From contig OZ244732.1 of NCBI GenBank assembly GCA_965219345.1, positions 1,536,001-1,600,000 on the forward strand: a stretch of 64,000 bases of DNA, in the 5' to 3' direction. Source of the DNA: Nitrosopumilus sp. GTDB lineage: Archaea; Thermoproteota; Nitrososphaeria; Nitrososphaerales; Nitrosopumilaceae. Below are positions 4,895 through 41,137 of the stretch, one piece after another. The position numbers and the translations under genes are program-made. Positions within the stretch are counted from its first letter, which is position 1. The number at the start of each line of letters is the position of its first letter. The notes below the pieces were generated by a model. The model ran no database searches. It worked only from the letters and a program-made list of their open reading frames with translations, and was not told where the DNA came from.

Positions 4895-4932
4895 CAAGTC
4901 AAACTTAGATTCTGAACCCTTTTTTACAATAA

Positions 4933-5374: not shown

Positions 5375-5474
5375 AGTCAGGAATATCTCGCGGTATTAGC
5401 TGGGGGCCCAAAAGCTCACATAAACTAGTTAATGCATGACAAGGTCTCCAAAATAAAGGAGACTGACTTTTTTT
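5375..5474 (+). ncRNA. candidate structured small RNA
   Basis: Closing stem AGTCA/TGACT, 11-bp stem 5393-5403/5425-5435 with G-U pairs, hairpin GTCTCC/GGAGAC, T-tract at 3' end, TTTTAT about 30 nt upstream. Confidence 0.45.
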
Positions 5475-5558
5475 CAGATTAAATTAAACACAATAAATTT
5501 TCCAAAAATTAACCATGCAATGGTATAATTATGGCAATCGTCCATTGATCATTATAAT

Positions 5559-6419
5559 ATGTCCAGATACGAAAATCCAAAAATCAATGTGAATGTGGGC
5601 GCCGCTAAAGGCGTTATGATTGGAATTGTCGTACTAATAATTATTGGAGTAGTAGTAGCTTCTGCAGTACAAATTGTAGATGCAGGACATAGAGGCGTCT
5701 TACTTCATTGGAATGCAGTTGATATTCAAGCTCAACCACTTAATGAAGGGCTTCATTTTGTAATGCCATTTGCAGACTCTGTTGTGAATATGGAAGTCAG
5801 GACACTAAAGTATGTGAAATCAACATCTTCAGCTTCTAAAGATCTTCAGACAGTATCCACTGCAATTACAGTAAACTATCACCCATCACCTGATTCAGTT
5901 AATTTCCTCTTTAAAGAGGTCGGCCTTGACTATGAGAACAGAATCATTCAACCAACAATAGAAGAAGTTGTAAAACAAATTACTGCAAATTATAATGCAG
6001 AAGAACTTATCACAAAAAGACCTCTGGTAAAATCTGATATTGAATCAGAGATTAGTTCTCGTTTAGGTGCATTCAATATTGTTACTGAAGTTGTCTCTAT
6101 TACAGACTTTCAATTTTCAGCACTATTTGCACGAGCAATTGAAGATAAAGTAGAGGCAGAACAAAAAGCACTAAAGGCAGAAAATGACCTTAAAAGAATT
6201 GAGGTAGAGGCAAGACAACATGAAGCCGAGGCCGTTGGTATTGCTGCCGCAAACATTGCACAAGCTAATGGTGAAGCAGAAGCAATTAGAATCATCAATG
6301 AAGCATTATCAAACAACCCACACTATTTGGAATGGCTAAAGACACAAGCATGGAATGGAGTATTACCATTGGTAGTTGGTGAAGGCGGAACACCATTCAT
6401 TGCAATACCAACTGAATAA
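5559..6419 (+). CDS. prohibitin / SPFH (band 7) family protein
   Basis: VDAGHRGV, EGLHF..PF, SKDLQTV, YNAEELITKR, AIEDK.EAEQ. Confidence 0.95.
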   Translation: MSRYENPKINVNVGAAKGVMIGIVVLIIIGVVVASAVQIVDAGHRGVLLHWNAVDIQAQPLNEGLHFVMPFADSVVNMEVRTLKYVKSTSSASKDLQTVSTAITVNYHPSPDSVNFLFKEVGLDYENRIIQPTIEEVVKQITANYNAEELITKRPLVKSDIESEISSRLGAFNIVTEVVSITDFQFSALFARAIEDKVEAEQKALKAENDLKRIEVEARQHEAEAVGIAAANIAQANGEAEAIRIINEALSNNPHYLEWLKTQAWNGVLPLVVGEGGTPFIAIPTE

Positions 6420-6427
6420 TTTTTAGT

Positions 6428-6733
6428 TTAATCTTTTTTCTCAGTATCTGATTTGTCTCTTATCGAATCATACATTGCAAGGAACTGATCAGGTTCATGT
6501 TGTCTGTAACGTTTTTGGAGCTGCATAATCTCTTTATCTGAAATTTTCTCTCCCTTGAATTCGTGGTATTCTTTGATGATTTGAAATTGAGTTTTTTTAA
6601 TCTTGTATTCTTTTAGAGTAGCGTTAACTGTTCTATTGCACATAAAATCATTAATTACAAAACGATATACCAAATAGCCAGCAATTCCAATAACAGCAAC
6701 TATTACTATGGGAATAATGATAAAGAATACCAT
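6428..6733 (-). CDS. membrane-anchored hypothetical protein
   Basis: N-terminal TM helix, 101 aa. Confidence 0.75.
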   Translation of the reverse strand: MVFFIIIPIVIVAVIGIAGYLVYRFVINDFMCNRTVNATLKEYKIKKTQFQIIKEYHEFKGEKISDKEIMQLQKRYRQHEPDQFLAMYDSIRDKSDTEKKD

Positions 6734-6875
6734 AATTTTTTACTAATTTACTTAGTATTTCATTGTATATATTCCCAAAAACTTGATTTTGTTAAACAAA
6801 TCACGCATGACAAAATTAGACTCATCTAATTAGTTTGCTCTAATTTTCAAACCGTTTAAATGAATAATTTACAAT

Positions 6876-7058
6876 ATGACAAATATGAAACAAGACTCAT
6901 GTAGAACATGTGGAATAGAATTAAAAGTAAAGAAAACATGTAATGTTTGTACTCAAGCAAATCAATTCTTTTGCCACAACTGTGGATATGAGACTGAAGA
7001 ACAAATTCACTCTCAATGTATGTTGATAAGCTGTAATCATGCCTTGCTAAGTGCATAG
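6876..7058 (+). CDS. small multi-CxxC zinc-finger protein
   Basis: CRTCG...CNVC...CHNC...IHSQC. Confidence 0.75.
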   Translation: MTNMKQDSCRTCGIELKVKKTCNVCTQANQFFCHNCGYETEEQIHSQCMLISCNHALLSA

Positions 7059-7120
7059 TTAATCATTCTAAATTATTGATGATTTGAAAATTTTATAACT
7101 AGTTTTTTAGGAATCACCCC

Positions 7121-7354
7121 ATGACTGATAAAACTGATATTTCTGAACAAGATCTATTTGTGACGGAATTTCCAAAAAAGGGCTATGGCATTGTAGATTA
7201 TCTTCAAGGAAGAGTACATTTTGCTTTGCTTGATCAAATGAAACTAATGACAAAATCTGGAATGACACAATCACAAATCAAAGAAACAATCATTGCTAAT
7301 GTGACTGAAATAATAGATAACTTTGAACCAGAAAAAGGATCAAAAAGTCTTTGA
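7121..7354 (+). CDS. hypothetical protein
   Basis: 77-aa ORF with TTTTATAA upstream. Confidence 0.6.
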   Translation: MTDKTDISEQDLFVTEFPKKGYGIVDYLQGRVHFALLDQMKLMTKSGMTQSQIKETIIANVTEIIDNFEPEKGSKSL

Positions 7355-7465
7355 ATCCATCATTCCTGATTCCGCCATAATGATTTTGTGGCATTTACAA
7401 TAACAGTTAGTATGCGGCATATCGTTATTGTTTCTATACTTGCATTCTTTTGTGTGGTCTATCAT
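7340..7465 (-). CDS. putative 41-aa Cys/His micro-protein
   Basis: MIDHTKECKYRNNNDMPHTNCYCKCHK... Confidence 0.45.
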   Translation of the reverse strand: MIDHTKECKYRNNNDMPHTNCYCKCHKIIMAESGMMDSKTF

Positions 7466-7490
7466 TGACAATTTTTAGACCGATGTTATG

Positions 7491-7901
7491 TTACGCTAAA
7501 GTTGGGTCGCCGCTCAATATGTTTAGTACATGTTCAACAATTTGTTTTTGACCTCCTGCATGAAGATCAGTTCGTACTTGATCAGAACCCAAACTAACAA
7601 AAATTAGATTATCTTCTCCTAGAGGAAAAGTCATTCTTGTAATTTTTTCAAATGCTGCTATTGCGTATAATCCCTTTCCAATTTTTGGACTCAATTCATT
7701 TCTTCCTTTCCATGCAACTGCAGCTCTTTTGAGCGATGCTTCGGTCTCTTCTTTAGATAGATAGTTTGTAACTCCAGGACGATGGTGTATAGCAAGTATT
7801 TTTCCTTCATTATCCGAAATTATACTATGTCTGATGTTAGGGTCAGAGTTCATTATCCTCATTAAGAGATTCATAAAATCCATCCTTTTTTCTAGGATCA
7901 A
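7491..7901 (-). CDS. roadblock/profilin-like thaumarchaeal protein (DUF6659-like)
   Basis: DPNIRHSII.D.EGKI...RPGV...LSPKIGKGLY.IA.FEKI.RMTFPL. Confidence 0.7.
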   Translation of the reverse strand: MILEKRMDFMNLLMRIMNSDPNIRHSIISDNEGKILAIHHRPGVTNYLSKEETEASLKRAAVAWKGRNELSPKIGKGLYAIAAFEKITRMTFPLGEDNLIFVSLGSDQVRTDLHAGGQKQIVEHVLNILSGDPTLA

Positions 7902-7924
7902 ATATTACTTAAGGGATCTCCAGA

Positions 7925-8404
7925 TTAACTGCCTTGAGAATTTGCAGTTTTTTCATAAAAAAATTCCTGTTTTTTTAATTTTTTTTCAGAAATAATCCTA
8001 CATTTTCTCATGGGAACCAAACTGGAAATTTCTTCATACGTACTCATATCTATGATATCTTTAGCATAAGCAATTTGCAATAGAGGTGGCCTTTCCTCAA
8101 TCATTGGTTTTACTTGCTCATATCCACTGCTTTGTCTCATCCCTGTTCTAAATAATCCAATATGCTTGTCACTCTTTGATATTTGGGGATCTTGATAACA
8201 ACAAATTGCATACTCGTCATCCTTTTTTTCAATAACTGTTAATCTTGTGAATTTTTCACTCCAATTTTCTATTTCTTTAGCAAGAGAAATGGCCTCTTCT
8301 TTGTCTTCAAATACCGTTGAAACTACAAATCTCTCTTTTTCATATGCCCATAAGATTCCAAAATTCCCATGCCAATCAATTTCAAAGGACATGTATTTTA
8401 TCAA
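7925..8404 (-). CDS. hypothetical protein
   Basis: 159-aa ORF. Confidence 0.7.
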   Translation of the reverse strand: MIKYMSFEIDWHGNFGILWAYEKERFVVSTVFEDKEEAISLAKEIENWSEKFTRLTVIEKKDDEYAICCYQDPQISKSDKHIGLFRTGMRQSSGYEQVKPMIEERPPLLQIAYAKDIIDMSTYEEISSLVPMRKCRIISEKKLKKQEFFYEKTANSQGS

Positions 8405-8543
8405 GAAATTATCAAATTAATGCTTTCGAATTTTGAGATCATTAAAGATAGAAATCCTAAAAAATAGTTTTATTTTTTCATTCCAATTAAACAAACGTTT
8501 GAACAATACAATAATTTCTTTTATAGTTCGAGCCTAACATAGT

Positions 8544-8618
8544 ATTGACGACTTCGTTTAGTGGTCTAGGCATGCTATAAACGACCACTATTCCAAGACG
8601 TCGTTAATCTATTTTTTT
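8544..8618 (+). ncRNA. candidate hairpin small RNA (or 3' structure of the convergent ORF)
   Basis: ATTGACGAC/GTCGTTAAT and TAGTGGTC/GACCACTA stems, TTTATA about 25 nt upstream, T7 tract downstream. Confidence 0.4.
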
Positions 8619-8752
8619 AACAATGCTTCTGCTGGTGACTTGTCTTTGTTTGATTCCCAATGCCAATTATGATGTTTCTTCCAATGTTCATCTAATTCAT
8701 CTGTAGTCGGTTCTTTTCCAAGTGGAGATCCACATAATTTACATTGTTTCAT
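8609..8752 (-). CDS. 47-aa C2H2-like zinc-finger micro-protein
   Basis: MKQCKLCGSPLGKEPTTDELDEHWKKHHNWHW... Confidence 0.7.
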   Translation of the reverse strand: MKQCKLCGSPLGKEPTTDELDEHWKKHHNWHWESNKDKSPAEALLKK

Positions 8753-8823
8753 TTTTTGAATCCTTTAATTTTTTCTTTTTTGATTTAATTGTGGGATGAC
8801 ATCGTACAGGTAAATTTTCATCA

Positions 8824-9198
8824 TTATCCATTTACTTGAATTAAAAGTTGTACAAAATTAAGAGTTTTGTTATTTTCTCTTTTTCTTAAACGAAGTGAAT
8901 TTCTCTCTTTTCTTTTTCATTTCTAAACCTCTAATCTGATATGTCTTTCCAGTTTCACAGAGTTTCATTTCTCCAGTGATTTCGTCATGTATGGATTCTA
9001 GTAAGTCATTAGATAATAACTCTCCAACAATCTCTCCCCCGCTCTACTTTCTGAAATCTCAAATTTATATGGAATTGTTGAAACTTTGCTGAAATAATCA
9101 TTTTGTGAATTTCTCAAAATAAACTGTTCAATTTTTTGCTCTCTAGTTAAGGAAGGCTCTTTTCTTTTGAATTTCCTAAATGGTCTTCTTTCTGACAA
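8824..9198 (-). pseudogene. frameshifted hypothetical (winged-helix-like) protein
   Basis: Reading frame continues as IVGELLSNDLLESIHDEITGEMKLCETGK... after a shift at GGGGGAGAGA (~9031-9040). Confidence 0.6.
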
Positions 9199-9231
9199 TA
9201 TTTTTTTTAATATTTTCTAATATTTTAGCTA

Positions 9232-9822
9232 TCATTCAGAATGTGTTGAATCAGGATCATTATTTCCAGGCAAATATTTATCTCCAAGTTTATTTTTCAT
9301 TTTTTCATCAAATTCTTCCTGAAGTCTTGTAAGATAGATTTCAGCTTCTGTCTCATCATCTGGAATTCCTGTATCTATATCGTAATTGAAACCAGTTGCT
9401 AAATGATAAAATTCCTCAAAGAATTCTTTACAATCAATTACATCTGTTTTGTCATCTACTGATACTACAAGACAATCATTGTCCATTCTAAAGTTGAGAC
9501 AAACTTCCTCCTCAATCATAGTATCCACCAAAACTGCCATAAGATATGCTACATATTGATTTTCTAGCTTACCTTTCCTCTTATTTGCAATCCATAATTC
9601 GTTACCTTCTGCCAAATTATCAAAGGTCCTGACTGTCATATCTCGAATATCTGAATCAGGATATGCTAGTTTGGAATCCCATGATTTTGTACTATGATCC
9701 CCTGGCTCTACGTACAATGCATCAAACGTCAAATTTTCATTTAGTTGTTCAAATTCCCATATCTGTTTGTTAGTCCACATGGGCGAAAAATTTCCAATTA
9801 ATTTTCTTGATATTTGATTCAA
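9232..9822 (-). CDS. acidic hypothetical protein
   Basis: 196-aa ORF. Confidence 0.7.
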   Translation of the reverse strand: MNQISRKLIGNFSPMWTNKQIWEFEQLNENLTFDALYVEPGDHSTKSWDSKLAYPDSDIRDMTVRTFDNLAEGNELWIANKRKGKLENQYVAYLMAVLVDTMIEEEVCLNFRMDNDCLVVSVDDKTDVIDCKEFFEEFYHLATGFNYDIDTGIPDDETEAEIYLTRLQEEFDEKMKNKLGDKYLPGNNDPDSTHSE

Positions 9823-9862
9823 TGAATATTTCCAAATTGTCCAATGTTTAATCTTATCTTAA

Positions 9863-10069
9863 CTAATCATTAATTCCTGATTTGAGAAACTCTAATGTGC
9901 ATTCAGTAAGTTCTTTGCTAGAATGTTTTTTGACTTCATGTTTACAATTAGGACAAATACCTGGCTGTTCTTCTGTAAATTCTTCATTAACTTGTTTCAT
10001 ACAACATTCCATTAATTCCGGTGTTGAATGGGATTCCATTGCAAGCTTACAAGTTGGACACTCTGTCAT
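9863..10069 (-). CDS. tandem CxxC-H-C zinc-finger protein
   Basis: Two internal repeats CPxCK.....HS..EL.EC. Confidence 0.75.
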   Translation of the reverse strand: MTECPTCKLAMESHSTPELMECCMKQVNEEFTEEQPGICPNCKHEVKKHSSKELTECTLEFLKSGIND

Positions 10070-10201
10070 GTTCTCGATCTTTTTTATCTTAATTTTTTGC
10101 TCATAATATGTATTTCATTTTTCAAAGATCCTAGTAAGAATATATCTGAAAAATTTGATTATATGTTAAATTCTACCCATGTTAAATTGGTAAAGATTAT
10201 G

Positions 10202-10279
10202 CTATCCAAATAATATGGTAAATCCAACAGCTAAAGCTATAATTGAAATTCCCATCGAAACATAAAATCTCATATTCAT
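10202..10279 (-). CDS. putative 25-aa single-TM micro-protein
   Basis: MNMRFYVSMGISIIALAVGFTILFG. Confidence 0.45.
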   Translation of the reverse strand: MNMRFYVSMGISIIALAVGFTILFG

Positions 10280-10320
10280 TAAGATAGCTAAAATAGTCTA
10301 AAATTAATAGTTTAGAATTT

Positions 10321-10405
10321 GGGAAGCAAGCAAGTATGATATCCACCTTGCATCGACTCTTTGGGAGTTATGTTCAGATATCAAACTAGCAACCGACCTT
10401 GCTCC
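10321..10405 (+). ncRNA. candidate long-hairpin small RNA
   Basis: Nested stems GGAAGCAAG/CTTGCTCC, TGATATC/GATATCA, GCAT/ATGT, GACTCT/GGAGTT (G-U pairs favour + strand). Confidence 0.4.
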
Positions 10406-10763
10406 AATTTGTTTAATAATTCGTGTTTTCAAAAATTCTTAAAATAAAACATGTCTTGATTATTGATCAAAATGGGTTGAAAAAGCTATCCTGTTTTAAT
10501 TTTCAGAAAAATCGAGCCTATATTTCATTGAAAATAGTATCTTAGGTATGGAGTGTCTGTTTCAAATTATACACACAATTTCTTTTAATCTAGTCTGAGT
10601 TATCTATAGAGTCATACGTTTGACGGCGTTCATGTCTTTAACCGACCATGCCCCTCCTAGTATTCATTAGCAGTCAAACATCTTGATTCTAATATTTTTT
10701 TCAATTGCTTTTGATTGAATAATAGATTAAAATCTCAATAATTTTATTCTGAGATAGATATGG

Positions 10764-11306
10764 TTGAATATGAGTGAAAAAAATGTCCTAGTTTGGTCAA
10801 ATGACTCTTTTCTCCGATGGCCTGATTTCATTGCAGAGTCTAACACTGCAGCTTTTGAAGACTCTCATAGTATTATCAAATATAGTTATACATGGACAGT
10901 ACACTCTGATGAAATTGAAAGTCAAATTATATTTTTTATTGAGAACATTCAACTCTCTGTTGAATTTCATCCTGTCTTATCGTGGGTTAGGACTTTACAA
11001 GCCAGTGATGATTTACTAAAACATGAACAAGGCCATTTTGATCTGGCTGAACTGATAAAACGTGAAAACCTAGAAAAATTACAAAACAAATTTCATAAAA
11101 AACAATTTCCTACAAGAGGAAAAAATGAAGAACAAAGAAAGCAGTTTGCAAAAGAAGATTCTGGTAAAATGATTGCTATCGAAGTTGAAAAACTTGAAGA
11201 GGTTTTATCACAAAGACGTCAAGAATATGATCAGCAAACAAATTTTGGTCAAGATTTAGAAAAACAATCAGAATATAATTCAATATTTGATAAATTAAGA
11301 TTATAA
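10764..11306 (+). CDS. DUF922-like zinc-peptidase-motif protein
   Basis: L.W.DF, SWV, LLKHEQGHFDLAEL, Q.YD.QT.FG..Q. Confidence 0.8.
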   Translation: MNMSEKNVLVWSNDSFLRWPDFIAESNTAAFEDSHSIIKYSYTWTVHSDEIESQIIFFIENIQLSVEFHPVLSWVRTLQASDDLLKHEQGHFDLAELIKRENLEKLQNKFHKKQFPTRGKNEEQRKQFAKEDSGKMIAIEVEKLEEVLSQRRQEYDQQTNFGQDLEKQSEYNSIFDKLRL

Positions 11307-11324
11307 TTTACTATACACCAAGAA

Positions 11325-11585
11325 TTATTGCTCAATAATTTTATTTTCAGGAATTGAATTGATGTAATTTACTAAACTTCTATAATATTTTAAATGAAAG
11401 TCTAAATCTTTAATCTCTGTTTGTTTTAACTCTTCAAGTTCAGGACCGAAATCTCTTTTGTCTGTTTGAATATGATTTAATGTATCTTCATTTACTTCAA
11501 TCATGTGAAAAAGACTATGAAGCACTTCACTTTTACTGAGTGTTTTATTACATGATTTTTTTAATAAAGCCTCAACCCAATCCAT
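11325..11585 (-). CDS. hypothetical protein
   Basis: 86-aa ORF. Confidence 0.65.
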   Translation of the reverse strand: MDWVEALLKKSCNKTLSKSEVLHSLFHMIEVNEDTLNHIQTDKRDFGPELEELKQTEIKDLDFHLKYYRSLVNYINSIPENKIIEQ

Positions 11586-11672
11586 ATGAATTGAGACCAG
11601 AATTATTATATCCGTCCCTAACTTGATAAATTCTAACTTTTACTCTATTTTTTTTAGTTTAGGCTGAAATGA

Positions 11673-11804
11673 TTACTTTTTTTCCTGTTTGTTTTTTCGG
11701 TTCATGACTTCCTTGTTTCTTTCAATATCTGAGTGAACCTCAACATGTTCAAACAATTCTTCTTTTGATTCAAATAATTGTTCACAATAATAGCATTGAT
11801 GCAT
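11673..11804 (-). CDS. 43-aa C2H2 zinc-finger micro-protein
   Basis: MHQCYYCEQLFESKEELFEHVEVH: canonical C-x2-C-x3-F-x5-L-x2-H-x3-H. Confidence 0.75.
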   Translation of the reverse strand: MHQCYYCEQLFESKEELFEHVEVHSDIERNKEVMNRKNKQEKK

Positions 11805-17142: not shown

Positions 17143-18415
17143 TATGACCTGGATTATATCTCAAAATTGCACCAGCTTTTCCAAGACTTGCAAGCATATT
17201 TCCATGCTCTGCACTTCCAGAAATAACTTCTAACTGAGTTCCTGTTTTTGCTGCAAGCAATTCCAAATAATCTACAATATCCTGCTCATTAACATCTACT
17301 TCCATGGCTTTACAACCTGGACATGGATTACTTGTAAATTCTGTCTTTTTTGGGATAACTTGGGGTCTCTCAACAATATCTTCTTGAACGTGTTTGCATC
17401 TTTTACACTTTCCTTCAACTCTGTGCAAGTTTGTATCATCAGTAATGATTAGAGTTTTGGCAACATTGTTCTTTAGATATTCAATAATTTCTTGTAAACC
17501 ATATGAGCCCTTCCCAGAATGAGAATTAATCTCTCTGAACAAATCTTCTACAAGTTTCTTCTCTTCTACCATTCTAAAATTTCCCAAAATCTCTCCAGAC
17601 TTTGCAAAAGCCTCTCTGATTCCTTCAGATCCTGCATACGACGCATCAATTGTATTAATTATCATACCCTGCAATCTATACTCCAAATAATTTCCATTTA
17701 TGAAATCTTCTTTGGTAGGACCTGGACCCGAAATTATTAATCCTTTAATTGGGTAAATATCAATAAAGTATTCTCTTGTGGTTTCAGCTACTCTGTTATA
17801 GAAATATGATAATTCCATCTCTCTGAGTTTTTGAAATCTTTTTGCAGATTGTCCACCTTGCCTATGTTTTCCAGCTACCCCTGACCCAGTTTGAGATAAC
17901 ACTTCAATTTTTTCACCATACAATAATCCCCAACCAGCATCTTTTGCATCAATCGCTAAAAACCCAATTAGATTATCATCTTTTAACATGTCTTTTAAAA
18001 TGTCAACATGAAAATGATCATCACATCTGTACAAATATTGTTTCAAATCTTTTGGCGGTTCAATCTCCCAAACTTTTACAACTTCACTTCCTAAAGGCCC
18101 TCCTTCATCTGGTGGCAATGCTCCACAAAACATCACCAATCCCTTTTCTGGAGTTTTTTTGTATAGTTTCAGTCTCTGAACTACTTTTCCTAGAGAGTCA
18201 ACTACATGTGTTCTAGTCAGATCTGATTTGATGTTATCTGCTGTTCCTTGCTCTTGTTGAAGTGAACTGATAATTTCATGAAGTTGTTTTCCTTTTGGAA
18301 TGTATACTGTAATAAGCTCAGTCCCTCTCCCTGATTTTTGTGATAGTTCCTCTAACATCTTTCTTATTTTATAGATTTTAACAGAATCTTGTTTTTCTAC
18401 GTTAATTTTCTTCAT
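17135..18415 (-). CDS. prf1: peptide chain release factor aRF1
   Basis: NIKS, YRCD, GGQSAKRF motifs. Confidence 0.97.
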   Translation of the reverse strand: MKKINVEKQDSVKIYKIRKMLEELSQKSGRGTELITVYIPKGKQLHEIISSLQQEQGTADNIKSDLTRTHVVDSLGKVVQRLKLYKKTPEKGLVMFCGALPPDEGGPLGSEVVKVWEIEPPKDLKQYLYRCDDHFHVDILKDMLKDDNLIGFLAIDAKDAGWGLLYGEKIEVLSQTGSGVAGKHRQGGQSAKRFQKLREMELSYFYNRVAETTREYFIDIYPIKGLIISGPGPTKEDFINGNYLEYRLQGMIINTIDASYAGSEGIREAFAKSGEILGNFRMVEEKKLVEDLFREINSHSGKGSYGLQEIIEYLKNNVAKTLIITDDTNLHRVEGKCKRCKHVQEDIVERPQVIPKKTEFTSNPCPGCKAMEVDVNEQDIVDYLELLAAKTGTQLEVISGSAEHGNMLASLGKAGAILRYNPGHTK

Positions 18416-18473
18416 TTGTGATTTCTCATTTGCATGCGAATATTAATTTTGATTGATTCTAGGTTTCATAAAA

Positions 18474-19118
18474 TCACAATTCATCAAATGTTTTCAAAAA
18501 TACTTCTAGTGGCTGATTTCCTCTAATTTTGATAATTTTTTGATCATTAAAGACCAAAAAAGATGGTGTTGCATCAATCCCAATCTCTTTCCCAAATTCA
18601 TAAAGTGCAATGACCCGACTTTTGTATTTATTCTCATCAAGACATGTGTTGAATTTCACTAAATCCAAATCAACTGTAACTGCAAATCTATCTAGTGACT
18701 CTCTTGTTATCCATCCAGTTCTCTCGCCTCCCCAATTTTTGTAAAGTTCATCATGATATTGCCAGTATTTTTCTTGATCTTCTGCACAATATGATGCCTC
18801 TGCAGCTAGTAAAGAATCAGGACCATTTAGGGGAAAGTCTTTGAAGACTAGTTTTACTTTACCCATCTCAATAAAATCTTCATTGATAATATCTAGCGTA
18901 TTTTCATGAAATCTGTAACAAAAAGTACATTGATAATCTCCCCATTCTAAAATAGTAATTGGTGCATGTGGATCACCTAATACAGGAGAACCATTATCAA
19001 TTAATTTTGTAGTAGTAAATAATTTTGAATCGTTTTGTAATTCAGGATAAAATGTCAAAAACATTCCTGTGATAATTCCTATTGCGATCGGTATTGATAA
19101 GAGGTATAGTTTTGTCAT
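18474..19118 (-). CDS. DsbA-family thioredoxin-fold oxidoreductase
   Basis: GDYQCTFC, FKDFPL, GIDATPSF. Confidence 0.92.
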   Translation of the reverse strand: MTKLYLLSIPIAIGIITGMFLTFYPELQNDSKLFTTTKLIDNGSPVLGDPHAPITILEWGDYQCTFCYRFHENTLDIINEDFIEMGKVKLVFKDFPLNGPDSLLAAEASYCAEDQEKYWQYHDELYKNWGGERTGWITRESLDRFAVTVDLDLVKFNTCLDENKYKSRVIALYEFGKEIGIDATPSFLVFNDQKIIKIRGNQPLEVFLKTFDEL

Positions 19119-33265: not shown

Positions 33266-34491
33266 CGTAATTTCTTTTTTCTAATTTGTTGTACAATCAT
33301 TGGTAAAAATGCACCCACATCTGATACAATTCCTAATGCTTGCCATGTTCCTCTGTCCATAAGTTTTGTAACTGTTGGTTGATTGATATCGATAACAATC
33401 ACTTTGACATTGGCTGGAAGCATATTTCCAGTTGCAATAGAATGAAGCATAGTTGAAATCATGATTACCATACTTGCGTCTTTTAGAACTTTTTTGTATT
33501 CGCGTTGTGCTTCAGTAACGTCTGTGATAACATCTGGTAGTGGTCCATCATCTCGAATTGAGCTTGCCAACACAAATGGTACTTTGTTTTTTACACATTC
33601 ATACATAATTCCCTTTGTCAATTTCTTAGTCTTTACCATATTTGCAATAGAACCTGCTTTGAAAACAGCATTAATTGCATCCATATGATTTCTATGTCCA
33701 TGATATGCCAAAGTTGCGTCATGAACATTCATTCCTAGTGATGTTCCAAGTGTAGCATATTCAATATCATGAACCGCAAGAGCATTTCCTGCCAATACTG
33801 CATCAATATATCCTGATTTGATTAGTTCGGAAACTGCATCATCTGCACCAGTATGTACTATCGCAGGACCTCCAACAATGACTATTTTTCCACCCTTCTT
33901 TTTGGTATTGTAGATATCATCTGCAACTTTCTTTGCAATGTGTTGAGTTGGCCTTTCGCTAGAACTTGAACTTCCCATAAACTCAAAAACATTGACTCCT
34001 TCTCTTGGACGCTCAGGTGGAGTTATTTTGATTCCTTTTTCTCCGACAATTATTTGATCTCCTTTTTTGACATCTCTCACTGGTACACAAAATGCCTTGT
34101 TTCCCTTTACGACAATACATTTGTCCATCATCATATTTTCAACTTGAATCCATTTTCCTTTACGAAAAACTTGGGTATGATTGTTTGTTGTACTGTAAAA
34201 ATTATCAGGCATTACATAGTCTTTTGGAGATTTCTTTAATGCAATTTCTCTTTGTATTTTTGATACTGCCCCTTCTCGATAAATTGTTTCTAAAATTGTA
34301 TCAAGATGTTTTTGATTTTTACCCTTAACAAGTAATCGTGCGTACGATTGATCTTTTTTTCTCTTACCAATGTCAATTTCTTGTACTTGGAATTCTCCTT
34401 TGAGGTCCATTATCTTATCAAAGATCTTAGTTAAAATCAAAGAATCAATTAGGTGACCACTAACTTCAATCTCTTGAGAGAATTTACTCAT
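33262..34491 (-). CDS. LOR/SDH-family (TIGR00300-like) putative ornithine cyclodeaminase
   Basis: GHLIDS, FYSTTN, GNALAVHDIE, SIRDDGPLPD, TMLHSIATGN. Confidence 0.9.
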   Translation of the reverse strand: MSKFSQEIEVSGHLIDSLILTKIFDKIMDLKGEFQVQEIDIGKRKKDQSYARLLVKGKNQKHLDTILETIYREGAVSKIQREIALKKSPKDYVMPDNFYSTTNNHTQVFRKGKWIQVENMMMDKCIVVKGNKAFCVPVRDVKKGDQIIVGEKGIKITPPERPREGVNVFEFMGSSSSSERPTQHIAKKVADDIYNTKKKGGKIVIVGGPAIVHTGADDAVSELIKSGYIDAVLAGNALAVHDIEYATLGTSLGMNVHDATLAYHGHRNHMDAINAVFKAGSIANMVKTKKLTKGIMYECVKNKVPFVLASSIRDDGPLPDVITDVTEAQREYKKVLKDASMVIMISTMLHSIATGNMLPANVKVIVIDINQPTVTKLMDRGTWQALGIVSDVGAFLPMIVQQIRKKKLR

Positions 34492-34535
34492 TTTACTATT
34501 ATCTATATCATGATAACTAAAGGTTTACTTTTTGT

Positions 34536-34585
34536 GGGACGGAAGTTAACGGGAGCTGATCCTTCTTGGGAAAGGCCGGGAGCTG
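34536..34585 (+). repeat. left terminal inverted repeat
   Basis: GGGACGGAAGTTAACGGGAGCTGATCCTTCTTGGGAAAGGCCGGGAGCTG. Confidence 0.95.
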
Positions 34586-34643
34586 CCTACCTGGGCATGA
34601 AATGTGGTCAAGGGAGGAATCACAAAAGTTCTTTGAAATTGTT

Positions 34644-35274
34644 CTATCGGCGGCGGTGTCTCTTAGTTAGATTCCACTTGGCCGCCCTATATGCCAATAT
34701 TAGAAGAATGAATACTATAACGACCAAATCGTAAGCAGACACCCAAACATCCAACGTGATAATCTCGAATAGGCCAACATAATACAGAATCGTGACACTG
34801 AACACTACTCCAAACAGTTTCTTGGTGGTTTTTCCTCTGCGCTTGATCCACACTCGATCTCCTGCTGAATGCTCACGATACTTTACAGCATCCCACAGCA
34901 TGTATGTCAGAAATATTACGACTACTGCTATGGGAAAGTCACTGGCATGTTCAGTTTGGGAGATGCGAAGCAGGTAAAAGTACTCGAAGAGTATTACCAA
35001 GTCAATAACGAATCTTATGGCACCCGGATTGGTATCCTTGTGTGGCTTGATTGACACAGACCTAGAGTACCCTACCCATCCAGAAACGATTAGTATGTAT
35101 GCAAATGTCAATGTCATGACAGTCGTGTGGTTGTCCGGCTCAAACATGGACTGGATTGGAATCATAATACCCGAGGCCAGCATGAAACTCTGACCCAGTA
35201 CTATCGCGAACAGCACGTGGATGGCTTGGGCATAACTGCGTGCGCTCAGGAGCCCCCATCTTGGGAGTTGTCAT
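34644..35274 (-). pseudogene. multi-TM membrane protein, likely frameshifted near the start
   Basis: 190-aa hydrophobic ORF; ATG at 35274 (MTTPKMG) joins the frame if the G5 run at ~35253-35257 loses one base. Confidence 0.6.
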
Positions 35275-35478
35275 CTATTCATCCTCTGGTACTAAACTGT
35301 CTTTGGGCATCGAATCCAAATCTGTCACAAAATAATAGTTTGTATCATTCGGATCTATCTATACTATGACTAGCGAATGGCACTTTGTACACTCGGCCTC
35401 AATCCAAGGATCATCTTCTTCGTAGAGTTTCTTCAAATCAGCCTCTTCGAGTATGTGTCCTCTGATTTTGCAGTATCT
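35275..35478 (-). pseudogene. 3' remnant of a zinc-finger gene cut by IS481, with internal stop
   Basis: ...YCKIRGHILEE...ECTKCHSLVIV*IDPNDTNYYF...PEDE*. Confidence 0.45.
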
Positions 35479-36675
35479 TGTACAGAAAGTAGTATACCCC
35501 AGAGCAGAAAACAATCCGGGGGGACAGGCATGAGGATACTGGACAGAGTCGAAATGAAGGTGCGCGGGTGGCTCGGGCGCCGTGCTTCCAGATGGAGGCG
35601 TACCAGGGGTCGCCGCATCAGGGTCATGAGAAAACTTGACGAGTCGAAGGTAAAATGGATAGTCCGCCAGAAGCGGAGGACGGATGCGGGCAGGCCCACC
35701 ACCGCCCAAATTGCAGAAACGATGGGCATCTCCGCAGTATGGGTCAAGAAGCTGTGGGCCAGGTACAGGCATGCCGGACCGGACGGCATGGCATACCCTG
35801 CCAGGATGGGCAGGCCCGCAACGGCATGCACGGACGCAGGGAACATTCTGCTGTAATCGGTGCCCGCAATGCAACAAACGGCGGGCAGGCACCGTCAGGG
35901 CGGCCATGCGGCAGGAGGGAATCAATATACCGCACAGGACAGTACACAGCATATTGAGGGAGGACGGCAGCGCAGACAGGCATCCGAGGAAGAGCAGGAG
36001 GCGGAGATGGGTGCGCTACGAGCGCACGTACTCGAACTCCATGTGGCATACCGACTGGAAGCAGATACGCGGGGGCATGTACGACGGCAGGTGGTTCCTG
36101 TGCTACGAGGACGACGCATCAAGGTTCGTCACCGGGTATGGCGTGTTTGATAACGCCACCGCAGACAACGCGCTTGCCGTGCTGGAGCGGGCCATAGTGG
36201 ACCACGGCAGGCCGGCCTCGATAATGACTGACCACGGCAGCCAGTTCTATGCCAACAAGAAGGAGACCGCAAAGAGGGGCGAGAGTGATTTTGAGAAGAG
36301 GCTTGTCAGGCTAGGCATACGCCAGATACTTGCAGGAGTGGGGCACCCCCAGACAAACGGCAAGCTCGAGAGGCTTCACGGAGAGATACAGCGAAAACTG
36401 CACCATTTTGAGGGATCCTCGTACGGTACGGCAGTCAAGGCAGATCCCGACTGCCACGTGGGAGGGCCGTTCCACACCGGCGGTGCAAGGGATCCAATGG
36501 AACGATTCATTGACTGGTACAACAACTCGCGTGCCCACATGTCCCTTGACTGGGAAGACCAGGAGACTTCCGCCCAGGCGTTTGTACGCAAGATGGCCCA
36601 AAGGCAAAAGGGTAATAGATACAGAGACCGGTGAGGAGTATGATGTCGGTTAGAGGGTATACTACTTTCTGTACA
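35479..36675 (+). mobile_element. IS481-family insertion sequence (1,197 bp), transposase frameshifted
   Basis: 21-bp TIRs TGTACAGAAAGTAGTATACCC / GGGTATACTACTTTCTGTACA; rve core WHTDWK, DDASRF, TDHGSQF, PQTNGKLER. Confidence 0.93.
35626..36653 (+). pseudogene. IS481 transposase split across three frames
   Basis: MRKLDESKVKWIVRQK HTH part, RREHSAV segment, and catalytic core in different frames; C-terminus also shifted. Confidence 0.85.
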
Positions 36676-36680
36676 CCACA

Positions 36681-37280
36681 ATGCATGACGCCTTTGGAAT
36701 AAAGGTAAACGTGAGGGGAACCCCAAACTCGTTTGATTCTGCAAAAGATCTGGCAAGGCGCAACAAATTCCAATTCGAGGCGTGGGCAGTCACGCTGATC
36801 CCCAATGTCCTGCCAAACACCAAGCAGGTAGGCGACAAGGGGGTTGATGGCAGAGGATACATCCATCTGGGCAAGAACAAAGACGGGAAGCGAATAGATG
36901 CCAAGATAATCGTGTCCGTGAAAGGAGGGGGCAACTTGACGCCGTCAATGGTGCGGGATTTGGCAGGCACCATGAGCAGTGAAAAGGCAAAGTTGGGCGT
37001 GTTCGTGTGCCTTAAGGAGCCCACGCGAAAGATGAGGGAGTCAGCGGCATCAGAAAAATTCTTCAGCACGCCTTTTGAGGAATCATACCCAAAATTGCAG
37101 ATATACACCACTTGCAGAATTTCTAATAAACTGCTGGTAGTTTTGGAATCATACCCAAAATTGCAGATATACACCATATCGGACTACAACGGGATCAAGC
37201 CAAACCTGCCGTCACTAGCAGACTTTGTCAAGGCTCCCCGGTCAGAGATGGATCCAAAAGGAATGCAAACCACGCTTTAG
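36681..37280 (+). pseudogene. C-terminal Mrr-like restriction endonuclease domain of a DNA methyltransferase fusion, 5'-truncated by IS481
   Basis: FQFEAWAV, GDKGVDGRGY, IIVSVKGG, MVRDLAGT...GVFVCL.EPT..M, YPKLQIYT. Confidence 0.75.
37079..37176 (+). repeat. 32-bp perfect direct repeat flanking a 34-bp unique insert (repeat-spacer-repeat)
   Basis: GGAATCATACCCAAAATTGCAGATATACACCA at 37079-37110 and 37145-37176. Confidence 0.95.
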
Positions 37281-37368
37281 GGAGACAATCTGAGAAGATT
37301 TACCACCCGAAGATTACCCAGAACCTGTTAACGGTACCTTTATTTACACTCTCAATTCAGGCGACACA

Positions 37369-38154
37369 ATGACAACAAAAACTACCTCAAAAATGGTAAT
37401 CCTGTTAGGGATAACGGCACTGTTAATCGCCATGCCGTTCTCTAGTACAGCGTTGGCCCAAGCAAGCGGTTTGCAACACATGTACACCCCTGACATCATA
37501 AGTCATAGTAGCAATCAAGCCAATATATGGAATGCGCCGGAGCACGTGTACTCCCCTGACATCATAAGTCATATAGACGGACTGCTCGATGGCACCATCC
37601 CAACTGCCAAAGAGTTCATGATTGGGAATATGACGGTGTTGCTGACCACGAGTGTGGATACAATTCAACCCAATTCATACGTCATCAAGACTATCGTGAC
37701 GCATGACGGTGTCGAACAGCCGGATCTGACCCTCAAATACAAGGTAAAGATCTATGATAACGGTACGTACCATGTGGTCAACGCCGACTTTAACATGCTG
37801 GTGACAGACACCTACATTAGGGATGTAACCAAGTCAATACCCAAAGTCGTGTGGCTGCCTGGATGCGGTGCGACCGTGGTGTTGATCGGATATGGTTCTG
37901 GAAGCAACGTGGGTTGTTATGGTGCCGTCGATGTGGATGCCTCGGTATCGGCATCATCTGCATCCATAACATGGGACGCAGACAGCGTAGTCAACTGGCT
38001 GATATGGACATTCACATACGAACGTGGTTATGCCAACATAGTAGGTCAGGAATACGAGTTCAACATCAACAGCGGCTCGATAACCACAAGTGGGGACTAT
38101 TCGTCAACCGCTCAACATGCCATAGGCGGAGTCTTCTTCTACATCGTGGAGTAA
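37369..38154 (+). CDS. secreted hypothetical protein
   Basis: Signal peptide ...STALAQ; internal H.Y.PDIISH duplication; T-rich tract after stop. Confidence 0.7.
   Translation: MTTKTTSKMVILLGITALLIAMPFSSTALAQASGLQHMYTPDIISHSSNQANIWNAPEHVYSPDIISHIDGLLDGTIPTAKEFMIGNMTVLLTTSVDTIQPNSYVIKTIVTHDGVEQPDLTLKYKVKIYDNGTYHVVNADFNMLVTDTYIRDVTKSIPKVVWLPGCGATVVLIGYGSGSNVGCYGAVDVDASVSASSASITWDADSVVNWLIWTFTYERGYANIVGQEYEFNINSGSITTSGDYSSTAQHAIGGVFFYIVE
37477..37573 (+). repeat. 31-bp direct repeat (2 mismatches) flanking a 35-bp unique insert, 66-bp period
   Basis: CACATGTACACCCCTGACATCATAAGTCATA 37477-37507 vs CACGTGTACTCCCCTGACATCATAAGTCATA 37543-37573. Confidence 0.9.
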
Positions 38155-38155
38155 C

Positions 38156-38592
38156 ATGTCTCCCATCCCCTCTTTTTTATTTAAAATAAAATCATGCACG
38201 TGGTTTGCAATATCGGGTTTGGGAATAATCGGGGCGGCACACCAACTTGCCAACATGGTAATGCTGTTCGATTTTCTCGGTACCGTATGGTGTATTGGAC
38301 TGGCCGCAGTCGCCATGTTCGTTGTAATGGCAACGATCGGAGCGCTCAAGATACGCCACACTTTGGGGTGGTTCATGTGGGTGTATGTGCCATCCCTAAT
38401 GGCAGTCGGCGCCTTTCTCACAGGATGGCAGTGGAGTTTCATAGGGCCAGTCTGTTTCGGGGGATTCGGGAGTATGCAGGCTGGATTATTTTGATCTCTA
38501 GAAACTTTACAGATGATTGTCTTGGCGTGGCGCTCATAATAGGGGGCATATTTGTCCTCAAGCGGACGGGTCCGCGCGCAAAGGGAATCTAA
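38156..38592 (+). pseudogene. small multi-TM membrane protein, probably frameshifted
   Basis: Hydrophobic ORF 38156-38494 continues as a hydrophobic tail in another frame after the G5 run near 38460. Confidence 0.45.
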
Positions 38593-38728
38593 AAGCAAAA
38601 CTGGGAATTGGCAAATAATACCCAAATTCAAGGGATCAGACATCAACACAATGGTTCAAGCCAAACAACCAAGAAAAGTATCCACACAAGATCCGATAAC
38701 AAAGCACTGGTTCGTGTGGGAATACTAA

Positions 38729-38926
38729 TTATCGTAGCTCTTCATCATCCACGTCTGGGACAACCATCCCGGTATCCCGTCGTTTTTTCAAATACTCGCA
38801 TGCAAACATCTGCATGTTTCCGCATTTGTGGCAAAGCTTCAATTCTGCCGGAAACGGAATCTCGGTCGTAAATTTGGTTTTGGGATCCGTGAGCATGTCG
38901 CTTAACGGATATTTGCAGATTGGCAC
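38729..38926 (-). CDS. small zinc-ribbon protein (possibly 5'-damaged)
   Basis: LCHKCGNMQMF. Confidence 0.5.
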   Translation of the reverse strand: MPICKYPLSDMLTDPKTKFTTEIPFPAELKLCHKCGNMQMFACEYLKKRRDTGMVVPDVDDEELR

Positions 38927-39300
38927 AAATATTAGGACACGTCATCTGTCGCAGCGTCACATTTGCTCATTGTGATGTGACTATGCCATGTCTTATTAAA
39001 CCGATCCCCGCCTCGAATCGCCTAAGTCCACATAACTAAAGTATATAATCCCCCGGCGATCAATCTGGAGAAGATCCGCCCAGCTCCCGATATTCCCAGG
39101 AAGAACCTTCTTGTCGGCAGGTGAGAACGACAAGTGGAAGACGATAATCCAGAACGTCGGCCTGCACGAGAACTAGGCATAACCCAAAGATCAAAATACC
39201 CCTTATTCCATACCAAGGCATGGTTTGTAAAGACTGCAAGGACTGGAAAGAGACCTTGGAGTGGCTAAACAGCAACATTCCCAAAGAATCTGAGTAGCTA

Positions 39301-39528
39301 CTACGTCATCTTGTCCAGTTTGTCATTGTCTACATAGTCTGGATCTCCCGGCTTGTTGAAGGCGTTTAGGTATGATTGAACCATGACCATGAGGTGTTCT
39401 GTCATGGTTTCAAGTGTTTTTGCCTTGTACCTCTTTTCTAATGCCCTGACGAAATCTTTCGAGAATATCTCGCTTGACACTAGAAACTCACGGATCATCT
39501 TGTCGCGCGGCGTGTATGCGGCTGACAC
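39301..39528 (-). CDS. hypothetical protein next to right TIR
   Basis: 75-aa ORF, TTTATA on minus strand about 25 nt upstream. Confidence 0.5.
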   Translation of the reverse strand: MSAAYTPRDKMIREFLVSSEIFSKDFVRALEKRYKAKTLETMTEHLMVMVQSYLNAFNKPGDPDYVDNDKLDKMT

Positions 39529-39579
39529 GGGATCAATCCTAATGGAGATCTCTATAAACCGATCCTTGGCCGACCGCCC

Positions 39580-39631
39580 CAGCTCCCGGCCTTTCCCAAG
39601 AAGGATCAGCTCCCGTTAACTTCCCAGTCCC
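39580..39631 (-). repeat. right terminal inverted repeat
   Basis: Reverse complement GGGACTGGGAAGTTAACGGGAGCTGATCCTTCTTGGGAAAGGCCGGGAGCTG. Confidence 0.95.
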
Positions 39632-39653
39632 CTTTTTGTTTTAAGGCTAAATA

Positions 39654-40010
39654 TTAAACTGGAAGGATAACCTTGCCTTCAAATTTTGGGATATTATCAA
39701 TCTCAAATGCTTTTTCCAAATTTTCTTTTTGTAGTTTCGTTACACCTTGAACTATTGTTTTTGAGGACCCAGTTTTGTCAACAAGTGCAAGAATAAAACC
39801 ACTATTATCGGTCAAAACAAAACCTGCTGATTCATCAACAAACGCATAGAGATTTTCTTCCCCTACAGGATTCCATACATTAGATTTGGTGTCAACCAAG
39901 GCAAGTGCTGGCATTGCTCGTCCATCGGTTAGTTTATTGAGATACTCTCTAGCTTCTGCAACTCTTTTTTGACCTAGTTTTAATGCCTGAAAATATTGCA
40001 TGTTTCTCAA
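39654..40010 (-). CDS. conserved thaumarchaeal hypothetical protein
   Basis: 118-aa ORF with host composition. Confidence 0.75.
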   Translation of the reverse strand: MRNMQYFQALKLGQKRVAEAREYLNKLTDGRAMPALALVDTKSNVWNPVGEENLYAFVDESAGFVLTDNSGFILALVDKTGSSKTIVQGVTKLQKENLEKAFEIDNIPKFEGKVILPV

Positions 40011-40078
40011 ATATTGGGATATTATAAAAACAATATCTCTTCAAAAGATTGTTATAGAATCTCAGATTTTCTAAATTT

Positions 40079-40378
40079 ATGCCTCTTACAAATAAGGTAA
40101 TAATCAAACTCAATGAAATAACTACCTTAGTTGAGGACAAGTCAAAATTATCTGAATCCGAAGTTGATGAAATAAAATCTATCTTCAAAACCATTGTAGA
40201 AAGTGGTGAGAGATACAACATTGACGAAATTGAATTCTGGTTTGAAAATGAAGGAAGTTGGGTAACTAAAGAACCTCGAATCAGAATTACAAATCTTTCA
40301 AATTACATTCAAGACAAATACCAACAAACAGCCCATCTAAGAATAATTTCTGATGATGATTGTAATTGTGATAACTAA
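40079..40378 (+). CDS. conserved hypothetical protein
   Basis: 99-aa ORF. Confidence 0.75.
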   Translation: MPLTNKVIIKLNEITTLVEDKSKLSESEVDEIKSIFKTIVESGERYNIDEIEFWFENEGSWVTKEPRIRITNLSNYIQDKYQQTAHLRIISDDDCNCDN

Positions 40379-40608
40379 GTTTCCAGTTTTTCTAGTAATC
40401 GCCCAACAATTTTTGCATTTTCTGTTCTTTTATTAAGAATTTCTTTTAGACGAGTTTCATTTTTGCTATCTTTTTCAATTATTTGAAAATATTCTTCATC
40501 CAGATCATTATTAGCTTGAAGTCTTTTGATTACCTCAAACAATATTCCTATTACTTGTTTTTGCGCATCAATTAGTTCATCTTTACTTTTCTCAGACATT
40601 TTTACCAT
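40375..40608 (-). CDS. hypothetical protein
   Basis: 77-aa ORF overlapping the HD gene stop. Confidence 0.7.
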   Translation of the reverse strand: MVKMSEKSKDELIDAQKQVIGILFEVIKRLQANNDLDEEYFQIIEKDSKNETRLKEILNKRTENAKIVGRLLEKLET

Positions 40609-41137
40609 CCATCTCTGACAATGCTCTAAATAATTCTTTTAATTTAGGATCAGTAATCTCTGTTTCTGCAGATTTGAAAAATGACTTTAGTTTTTCTTGA
40701 GAATGCCCATCTTTTTTATAGATATTAGCTTGAAGCATCATCTCCAGTCTGTCAATTTGATGTACCAGTTTTGATTCAAGCGAAGTATTTTTTTGGTATT
40801 CTTGCCAAATTTGTAAATACTGTGATTTGATCAAATCTGGTAAATTTCTAATTATCTCATTGAATGCATTATTTTCTATTTCATTCTTTTTTTCTTTATT
40901 TAGTTGTTTAGGAGTATAATCTCCAATTTTTGATTCAGCTAAATCATGTAATAAAACCATTTTAATAATTTTTTCAGAATTATAATTTTCCAAATCAGAA
41001 ATTACCATACTTATCATTGCCATAGAATATGAATGGTCTGCAACTGATTCAGGAGCATCCAGTGATAGCCTATCAATCCATCCTTGTCTAGGGACTTTTT
41101 TGAGATTTGCAGCGGTTTTGAAAAAATCTAAGATCAT
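40592..41137 (-). CDS. HD-domain hydrolase (HDDC2/YfbR-like)
   Basis: LKKVPRQGW, ESVADHS, LHDLAE..GD.TP. Confidence 0.92.
   Translation of the reverse strand: MILDFFKTAANLKKVPRQGWIDRLSLDAPESVADHSYSMAMISMVISDLENYNSEKIIKMVLLHDLAESKIGDYTPKQLNKEKKNEIENNAFNEIIRNLPDLIKSQYLQIWQEYQKNTSLESKLVHQIDRLEMMLQANIYKKDGHSQEKLKSFFKSAETEITDPKLKELFRALSEMDGKNV

Follow-up and report, generated by a model that had tools for sequence, protein, structure and literature searches.

The stretch of DNA analysed here, referred to as the window, comprises 64,000 nucleotides (nt) of the genome of Nitrosopumilus sp. (assembly GCA_965219345.1, contig OZ244732.1, positions 1,536,001 to 1,600,000), and harbours at positions 34536-39631 an insert of 5,096 bp bounded by terminal inverted repeats and a duplicated target. 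This insert is very probably a transposase-less derivative of a family of IS6-like, cargo-carrying unit transposons of the Nitrosopumilaceae (IS, insertion sequence). Related repeats in other genomes of the family adjoin a transposase of the IS240 type, and this link between enzyme and repeats is, as judged by sequence comparison, both physical and phylogenetic. A preliminary description of the window had proposed a deleted derivative of an archaeal cargo transposon or of a casposon-like element; derivation from a cargo transposon is upheld, whereas the casposon-like part is abandoned since the ends are tied to the DDE_Tnp_IS240 domain.

An inverted-repeat search of positions 33500-40700 identified the pair 34541-34585 and 39580-39624, which is 45 nt long and 100% complementary. 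The runner-up was the pair of ends of a nested IS (31 nt, 87%), and no remaining inverted repeat was longer than 26 nt or exceeded 93% over its 14-15 nt. The element ends in the tips GGGAC at 34536-34540 and GTCCC at 39627-39631, and the right arm exceeds the left by 2 nt, TG (GGGACTGGGAAG versus GGGAC--GGAAG). The left terminal inverted repeat hence occupies 34536-34585 (plus strand, tip GGGAC, two copies of the internal motif CGGGAGCTG) and the right one 39580-39631 (minus strand, tip reading inward as GGGACTGG), and nhmmer matched them to a profile of the repeat family with E values of 1.8e-12 and 3.5e-15, respectively. Directly outside both tips stands the octamer CTTTTTGT, which forms the left (34528-34535) and right (39632-39639) target-site duplications and of which relatives have one copy at their empty site. 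The G+C content of 34536-39631 is 0.499, or 0.473 without the nested IS, which alone has 0.581; beside the insert it is about 0.30-0.37 (about 32%), and in the genome 0.36. The observations in the preliminary description of matching 45-bp repeats with GGGAC ends and a 2-nt indel, of an 8-bp duplication on both sides and of an interior richer in G+C than the host (about 50% as against about 32% next to it and 36% in the genome) are thereby all corroborated. The insertion point lies 44 nt upstream of a LOR/SDH (ArgZ-like) gene. When the 45-mer was scanned against the 1.91-Mb genome with up to three mismatches allowed, only two sites were found, both being the ends of the element, and a reversed-pattern control gave no matches. 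Short-word BLAST likewise revealed no further copies of the repeat in this genome, the best match being 30 nt at 87%.

The empty site was sought by comparing the region and its flanks with 41 genomes (40 relatives and the genome itself). In many of the 24 other genomes of the genus the flanks adjoin directly, and in five of them (G007, G011, G021, G024 and G017; alignment A1) one unduplicated target, CGTTTTGT or CGTTTTTT-like, lies between them, as had been anticipated for relatives lacking the insert. The cargo of the window element was found in none of these 24 genomes. Contigs from public runs of two studies span the junctions by at least 35 nt, namely the left (35 nt) and the right junction in run X1 and the left junction in run X5; in run X6, which belongs to a third study, a contig extends past the right junction by no more than 17 nt. 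Because contigs span the junctions, and because read depth in run X1 is even through flanks and insert, the insertion is real and not an assembly join. A contig running from flank to flank without the insert was found in none of the four runs, and with low depth in three of the four this does not demonstrate that the empty-site form is absent. One contig of run X5 jumps from position 39078 back to 37298, with a single additional T at the join, and loose ends at 37325 and 39060 in the same run lead into A+T-rich sequence foreign to the window. Positions 37298-37325 and 39060-39078 have in common a direct repeat of 14-15 nt, CAATCTG(G)AGAAGAT, and the join may represent a short related sequence in another genomic context. 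It was also observed that in genome G009 the intergenic position equivalent to the insertion point, likewise upstream of the LOR/SDH gene (L016:1373-2897, corresponding to window positions 34535/39632), is occupied by a different insert of 1.5 kb with an open reading frame (ORF) for a 145-aa TIR-domain (TIR_2) protein and an IS5-like transposase fragment; this spot may be an insertion hot spot.

The terminal repeats of the window element belong to a larger family. When the rightmost 2.4 kb of the element was compared by BLAST with 401 genomes of the class (the genome itself and 400 others), the search yielded only repeat matches, of 78-87% in six other genomes of the Nitrosopumilaceae, in addition to a 67% match to a 112-aa ORF; close relatives of the cargo were not found. 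The right repeat by itself gave 21 BLAST matches at E<1e-3, distributed over all five genomes that were re-searched. Alignment of the copies disclosed a common sequence of about 52 nt, which starts sharply at GG(G/A)ACTGG and outside whose tip the similarity is gone. Most of the 43 listed ends, among which some loci duplicate a place, start with GGGACTGG, GGAACTGG or GGGATTGG, and a minority are degenerate. Every repeat contains two copies of a motif of 8-10 nt, and both copies change together between subfamilies: the motif is CGGGAGCTG in the window element, CGGTAGAT in G325, CGGGTGCT in L125 and CGGGATATGG in L128. The paired motifs are probable transposase binding sites. The family is most abundant in the genomes G275, G325 and G002, where the G+C content around the repeats is 45-60%. 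To assess the distribution more broadly, one genome per species from 185,579 species was scanned with a degenerate 22-nt pattern. Seventeen loci were retrieved. Eleven contain the full repeat by profile, all of them in records that bear Nitrosopumilus or Nitrosopumilaceae in the title, and six (four Bacteroidota, one Enterobacterales and one Nitrosopumilaceae) match the pattern part only and are taken as chance. The preliminary description had proposed tracing the repeat core to longer copies; the host genome offered only the two ends, and the related repeats in Nitrosopumilaceae genomes adjoin an IS240-type DDE gene. In many 20-kb loci of G275 and G325, stretches of about 95-140 nt recur with 72-83% identity (L054:11498-11640 and L054:925-1017), one of them about 200 nt inside the non-transposase end and the other inside an IS110-family gene; they may be small repeated elements.

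The enzyme was recognised in G325, where two repeats (51 nt, 96%) lie 10.1 kb apart and are flanked by the 8-bp sequence TCACGCAA. Just inside one of them, at L054:1639-2787, is an ORF of 382 aa whose stop codon falls within the repeat. Its product matches Pfam DDE_Tnp_IS240 with an E value of 1e-13 (52 bits, gathering cut-off 27), and the best NCBIfam model is IS6 (NF033587) with 100.9 bits, followed by IS1 with 43 bits; across the transposases scored the ranges are 100.9-111.7 bits for IS6 and 41-43 bits for IS1. By eye a CxC...CxH motif is apparent, and a Cys4 stretch weakly matches zinc domains of the IS1/IS1595 type. The protein has 1,594 database relatives at E<=1e-10, some of them with a precomputed SWIM domain. 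To establish how regularly enzyme and repeat are associated, the G325 protein was searched in five genomes, and the resulting 30 loci, representing 28 distinct places, were scanned with the repeat profile. A repeat was found at the 3' end of the gene in all 11 places where the transposase is at least 67% identical to the G325 protein and in none of the 17 where identity is 38-61%. In each of the 11 places the last 11-12 residues of the transposase and the stop codon are encoded by the repeat, and repeat subfamilies and enzyme subfamilies change together. The right repeat of the window element correspondingly encodes ..LPAFPKKDQLP, like the tail LPAFPRENHLP of the cognate transposase, and LPAFPKKDQLP is coded in both repeats. 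Between the elements of G325 and G208 conservation extends from the repeat through the gene to about 150 nt upstream of it, beyond which the cargo differs; the non-transposase end in G325 has its own conserved subterminal sequence, of which three copies share 157-289 nt. As a separate observation, the 10.1-kb element of G325 lies at the 3' end of an IS110-family transposase gene (L054:409-1700), which is itself in two frames and whose open frame extends 75 nt into the L054 repeat.

Profile scans of the 20-kb stretches inward from repeats and transposase genes gave eight pairs of repeats in which both tips are present, and five of these eight are flanked by perfect 8-bp duplications. Besides the window element (5,096 bp, CTTTTTGT, no transposase) these are L054 of G325 (positions 1626-11782, 10,157 bp, TCACGCAA), L059 of G208 (3,694 bp, CCTAAAAC) and L122 of G275 (13,698 bp, TTATTTTG), all with a full-length transposase, and L123 of G208 (2,460 bp, TAATAAAG), which retains transposase residues 121-382 beside a nested IS481-like element. 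The cargo in G325 consists of an N6_N4 methylase, a 367-aa ORF of no known family, a LamG-type protein and a 1,120-aa protein with HYR repeats; that in G208 of an EcoRI-type methylase split in two, plus a GmrSD_N+HNH nuclease; and that in G275 of a 1,147-aa subtilase-like protein together with three other insertion sequences. No resolvase was detected among the ORFs scanned from the elements. The 10.1-kb element of G325 (genus g1, L054:1626-11782) is 99.77% identical over 10,150 bp to a copy in G275 (genus g23, L121:9761-19898), in which about 14 nt are missing from one tip and mutation has altered the other. Such identity suggests a very recent transfer of the element between genera.

Several observations weigh against assigning the window insert to a family of this kind. 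The window copy has no recognisable cognate transposase, its sole trace being a decayed C-terminal remnant (E 0.002-0.005); as this trace is so short and decayed, we infer rather than demonstrate that the copy was once autonomous. The transposase stays below the NCBIfam equivalog cut-off for IS6 of 125 bits, and its few named relatives are called 'DDE-type integrase/transposase/recombinase', from Nitrosopumilus or Cenarchaeum. Harmer and Hall hold that archaeal 'IS6' elements may fall outside the family, and remark that none of these has been studied experimentally (PMC6807381). At none of the 11 transposase genes was a second repeat found within 1.5 kb upstream, so a compact unit of about 1.3 kb with repeat, transposase and repeat was not encountered. 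Two scans of contigs from JGI metagenomes with degenerate repeat patterns gave no matches. Finally, three of the repeat pairs have no duplication (L055, 1.0 kb; L125, 3.3 kb; L128, 11.4 kb), a ninth copy, L121, was left outside the pair count on account of its damaged tips, and some 20 repeats lack a partner over a distance of 20 kb, all of which indicates that the repeat family is much rearranged.

This rearrangement, with its many solo repeats, also bears on the alternative which survives best, namely that two inverted IS6-like copies once flanked unrelated DNA, that their outer ends transposed together and that the IS bodies were later deleted down to the outer repeats. Such an origin would account for the decayed transposase C-terminus at 39126-39203 in the right part of the element and for the transposase tail encoded in both repeats. 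It is nevertheless improbable, since the other four duplication-flanked elements have a transposase at one end only and at the other a bare repeat followed by unrelated sequence, and since the non-transposase end in G325 has a conserved subterminal sequence of its own. According to the IS6 review, compounds of inverted IS6 copies would moreover stall as cointegrates (PMC7986276).

A still less likely alternative, to which we give very little credence, is that the ends are used by another transposase generating 8-bp duplications, of the IS256/Mutator, ISL3 or IS1595 kind, and that the IS240-type gene is a passenger or a neighbour by insertion preference. These were the candidates named in the preliminary description, which omitted IS6, the family that fits. 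The N-terminal zinc stretch does match the zinc-domain models of IS1/IS1595 and IS256, weakly and below cut-offs, and the link between enzyme and ends is drawn from sequence comparison. Against this alternative, the reading frame of the IS240-type enzyme enters the repeat, which encodes its 11-12 terminal residues in 11 of 11 places, and the subfamilies of enzyme and repeat change together. The scanned ORFs of the paired elements also gave no match to a catalytic domain of Mutator, ISL3 or IS1595. For casposons, target duplications are typically about 14-15 bp. Although casposons are present in Nitrosopumilus (PMC6563490) and the genome at hand has a Cas1 gene at C1:1640274-1641116, the reading that the ends are those of a casposon from which Cas1 and PolB were deleted has next to no probability and is rejected for practical purposes, as no repeat copy lies near Cas1 (the two copies in the genome being the element's own ends), the scanned ORFs of the window element and of the paired related elements yielded neither Cas1 nor any polymerase domain, PolB included, an IS240-type DDE enzyme accompanies the repeats at 11 of 11 places, and all five duplication-flanked elements have duplications of 8 bp. 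The Cas1 match (313 bits), the only full Cas1 gene of the genome, lies in an open frame of 566 aa about 40 kb past the end of the window and about 65 kb from the element, and the locus could be a casposon or a CRISPR locus; a second match, a fragment of 72 residues, is at C1:1123019-1123234.

The interpretation of the insert as a derivative of an IS6-like unit transposon allows a scheme of its origin to be outlined. Autonomous members carry at one end the gene for a transposase of 372-382 aa with N-terminal Cys-rich zinc-binding motifs, a helix-turn-helix (HTH) and the DDE_Tnp_IS240 domain; the last codons and stop of this gene lie inside the repeat of about 52 nt, and cargo of 1-12 kb is accommodated between its promoter side and the other repeat. 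By analogy with bacterial IS6/IS26, the enzyme would bind both repeats, nick their 3' ends and join these to the target at an 8-bp stagger. Replication would then produce a cointegrate, and its resolution by host recombination would leave a single copy between 8-bp duplications. The replicative mechanism is the weakest step of this scheme, because Harmer and Hall point out that archaeal members are without experimental data and question their place in the family. The window copy would have entered the low-G+C Nitrosopumilus genome from a relative of higher G+C content; the 47% of the element without its nested IS is similar to the 45-60% near the repeats in G275, G325 and G002. It may have arrived without a transposase, having been moved in trans, or may have lost the gene afterwards.

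The genome of the window has many IS6-like transposase genes, the closest of which is 55% identical to the cognate enzyme and thus below the 67% level at which enzymes are linked to the repeats. As no enzyme in the genome exceeds this 55% and the repeat occurs there only at the ends of the element, the window copy is taken to be, on these comparisons, probably immobile now. Contig C1 of this genome contains at least seven near-full-length IS6-like genes with N-terminal zinc motifs (211481-212581, 1035555-1036667 and 1730668-1731774 are examples) and many fragments, at 38-55% identity to the cognate enzyme. Convincing terminal repeats of these copies were not obtained by short-word BLAST, which leaves their ends undefined, not absent.

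The interior of the window element is composed of short cargo genes and the debris of other elements. Adjacent to the left repeat and reading outward to it is an ORF of 190 aa (34644-35216, minus strand) with about five hydrophobic segments and no Pfam or NCBIfam family; a homologue of 40% identity occupies the equal position and orientation (L062:18994-19539 in G275) beside the most closely related repeat (87%). A nested IS481-like IS follows at 35469-36685 (plus strand), with 31-nt ends 87% complementary and a G+C content of 58%. Its transposase is split over two overlapping frames, an HTH part running to 35856 and an rve part at 35684-36634, and the rve-domain protein has IS481 as its best NCBIfam model at 140.6 bits, under the cut-off of 224. 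No target duplication was found at either candidate pair of ends of this IS, and six copies about 68% identical to it are present elsewhere in the genome. It is the only transposase in the insert, and the earlier statement that no transposase within the insert fits its ends is accordingly borne out. IS481-like elements are nested in three of the five duplication-flanked units (window 35469-36685, L122:12632-13671 and L123 at about 18000-19070), the L122 copy being 76% identical to that of the window, and this recurrence may reflect either chance or a preference for such targets.

Abutting the nested IS is the remnant of a methylase-nuclease fusion gene (36681-37280, plus strand), which retains only the C-terminal Mrr_cat / NA-iREase1 domain and receives its ATG from the end of the IS. 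The methylase half was not found anywhere in the window element. The fused form is present at L067:12061-12864, with N6_N4_Mtase and Mrr_cat in one ORF of 267 aa, and a split methylase-nuclease copy of 70% identity occurs several times in G007. Since the nested IS has no target duplication and abuts this truncated gene, we infer that it caused a deletion inside the element, which may have taken the transposase too. In G007 the split gene homologous to 36681-37280 and an adjacent IS6-like transposase are included in an inverted duplication of 14 kb with 99.9% identity (L013/L014; C1:1863000-1878000 and 1808000-1822000).

Further to the right are an ORF of 261 aa (37369-38154, plus strand) without family match, whose single N-terminal hydrophobic segment makes a secreted or anchored product probable, and an ORF of 112 aa (38156-38494, plus strand) with about three hydrophobic segments and homologues of 47-48% identity in G183 and G303. 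An ORF of 65 aa (38729-38926, minus strand) has Cys pairs and uncertain coding status. The cargo list of the preliminary description was largely right as to the ORFs with hydrophobic segments and the Mrr_cat/NA-iREase1 ORF, but the 'zinc-ribbon' at 38729-38926 amounts to a weak, sub-threshold zinc-binding match. The decayed C-terminus of an IS6-like transposase (..DKWKTIIQN..) lies at 39126-39203 (plus strand) and has stops inside; it was found by tblastn at E 0.002-0.003, and positions 39126-39173 by profile at an independent E value of 0.005. An ORF of 75 aa without family match (39301-39528, minus strand) completes the content. Two stretches regarded as possible direct-orientation remnants of the repeat, 37286-37327 and, noticed by eye beside the transposase remnant, 39080-39106, were rejected as they fell within shuffled or non-self controls. 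A putative 55-aa transposase tail by the right repeat (39451-39615) was also rejected, with an E value of 0.14 and no match in the profile search.

Compared with IS6/IS26, the elements described here share the DDE_Tnp_IS240 domain, GG tips, 8-bp duplications and a single transposase gene running to one end, and both the 8-bp duplications and the GG tips are regarded as IS6 hallmarks (PMC7986276, PMC6807381). An N-terminal zinc finger is likewise present in some longer IS6 members (clade h of Varani et al. 2021). The review describes 14-bp repeats, 8-bp duplications, lengths up to about 1.76 kb and cargo situated between direct IS copies (PMC7986276). The present family does not conform to the compact IS of 0.7-1.8 kb with repeats of 14-20 bp: its repeats measure about 52 nt and have two internal motifs, and its elements extend over 2.5-13.7 kb and carry multi-gene cargo within one unit, whereas IS6 cargo is normally found between two direct IS copies in pseudo-compound transposons. 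The hosts differ too, as the archaeal IS6 clades in the review are from Euryarchaeota and Crenarchaeota (PMC7986276), and neither Nitrosopumilaceae nor the word 'Thaumarchaeota' occurs in the two IS6 reviews (PMC7986276, PMC6807381). Among IS6-family 'tIS' elements, Varani et al. 2021 name a passenger gene for ISDsp3 of Dehalococcoides alone (PMC7986276), which resembles our elements in having a passenger inside its ends. As far as its description there goes, ISDsp3 has one hypothetical gene and a single copy, in contrast to a whole subfamily whose 1-12 kb of cargo includes large secreted proteins as well as methylase and restriction genes.

With the Tn3 family the elements share long terminal repeats, a single transposase and cargo within the unit, and by analogy they would also share replicative transposition through cointegrates; Tn3 elements differ in their transposase family, their 5-bp duplications and the possession of their own resolvase and res site. 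Mobile insertion cassettes (MICs) are non-autonomous cargo elements bounded by IS ends, known from IS231 of Bacillus cereus, and to our knowledge those described so far all derive from this IS4-family element. The window copy, with IS-type ends, a target duplication, passenger genes and no transposase, and with autonomous relatives that have the same ends, corresponds to such a non-autonomous derivative of the MIC or MITE type (MITE, miniature inverted-repeat transposable element), and is unlike MICs in stemming from an IS6-like family and in residing in a host without the trans-acting enzyme. The casposons of Nitrosopumilus resemble the present elements in host group, in having terminal inverted repeats and a duplicated target, and in carrying methylases; they differ in relying on Cas1 and PolB and in their longer duplications, and none of these differing features is linked to this repeat family. 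A survey of thaumarchaeal mobile elements reports IS-like transposons of one or two genes in 13 families, and in its main text the letters 'IS6' occur solely as the first part of the names IS605, IS607 and IS630 (PMC6563490). No published description of elements like these was found in the literature searched, which did not extend to ISfinder or to Figure 7 and the supplementary IS tables of that survey. Bipartite ends of 52 nt and cargo of several kb in a single IS6-like unit are unusual for the IS6 family; the transposase family itself is already known.

The usual picture of ammonia-oxidising archaea is one of small and stable genomes. Among the cargo of the IS6-like units of 2.5-13.7 kb described here are methylases and restriction-type nucleases, surface proteins of the subtilase-like and HYR/LamG kinds, and further insertion sequences, and the near-identical 10-kb unit in two genera would represent a concrete vehicle of gene flow among these archaea. 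The transposase and its 52-nt ends with two co-varying motifs provide a defined pair for studying the transposition chemistry of archaeal 'IS6' elements. The foreign island of high G+C content upstream of the LOR/SDH (ArgZ-like) gene would be explained as a dead cassette and not as a novel type of element. We suggest, tentatively and as a possibility that falls a little short of an even chance, that the subfamily is no ordinary IS but a unit transposon for which carrying cargo is obligatory, and which would play in archaea the role of Tn3-type elements. By means of its bipartite 52-nt ends it would transfer genes for restriction-modification, defence and surface proteins from one genus of ammonia-oxidising archaea to another, leaving behind many solo ends and dead cassettes like that of the window.

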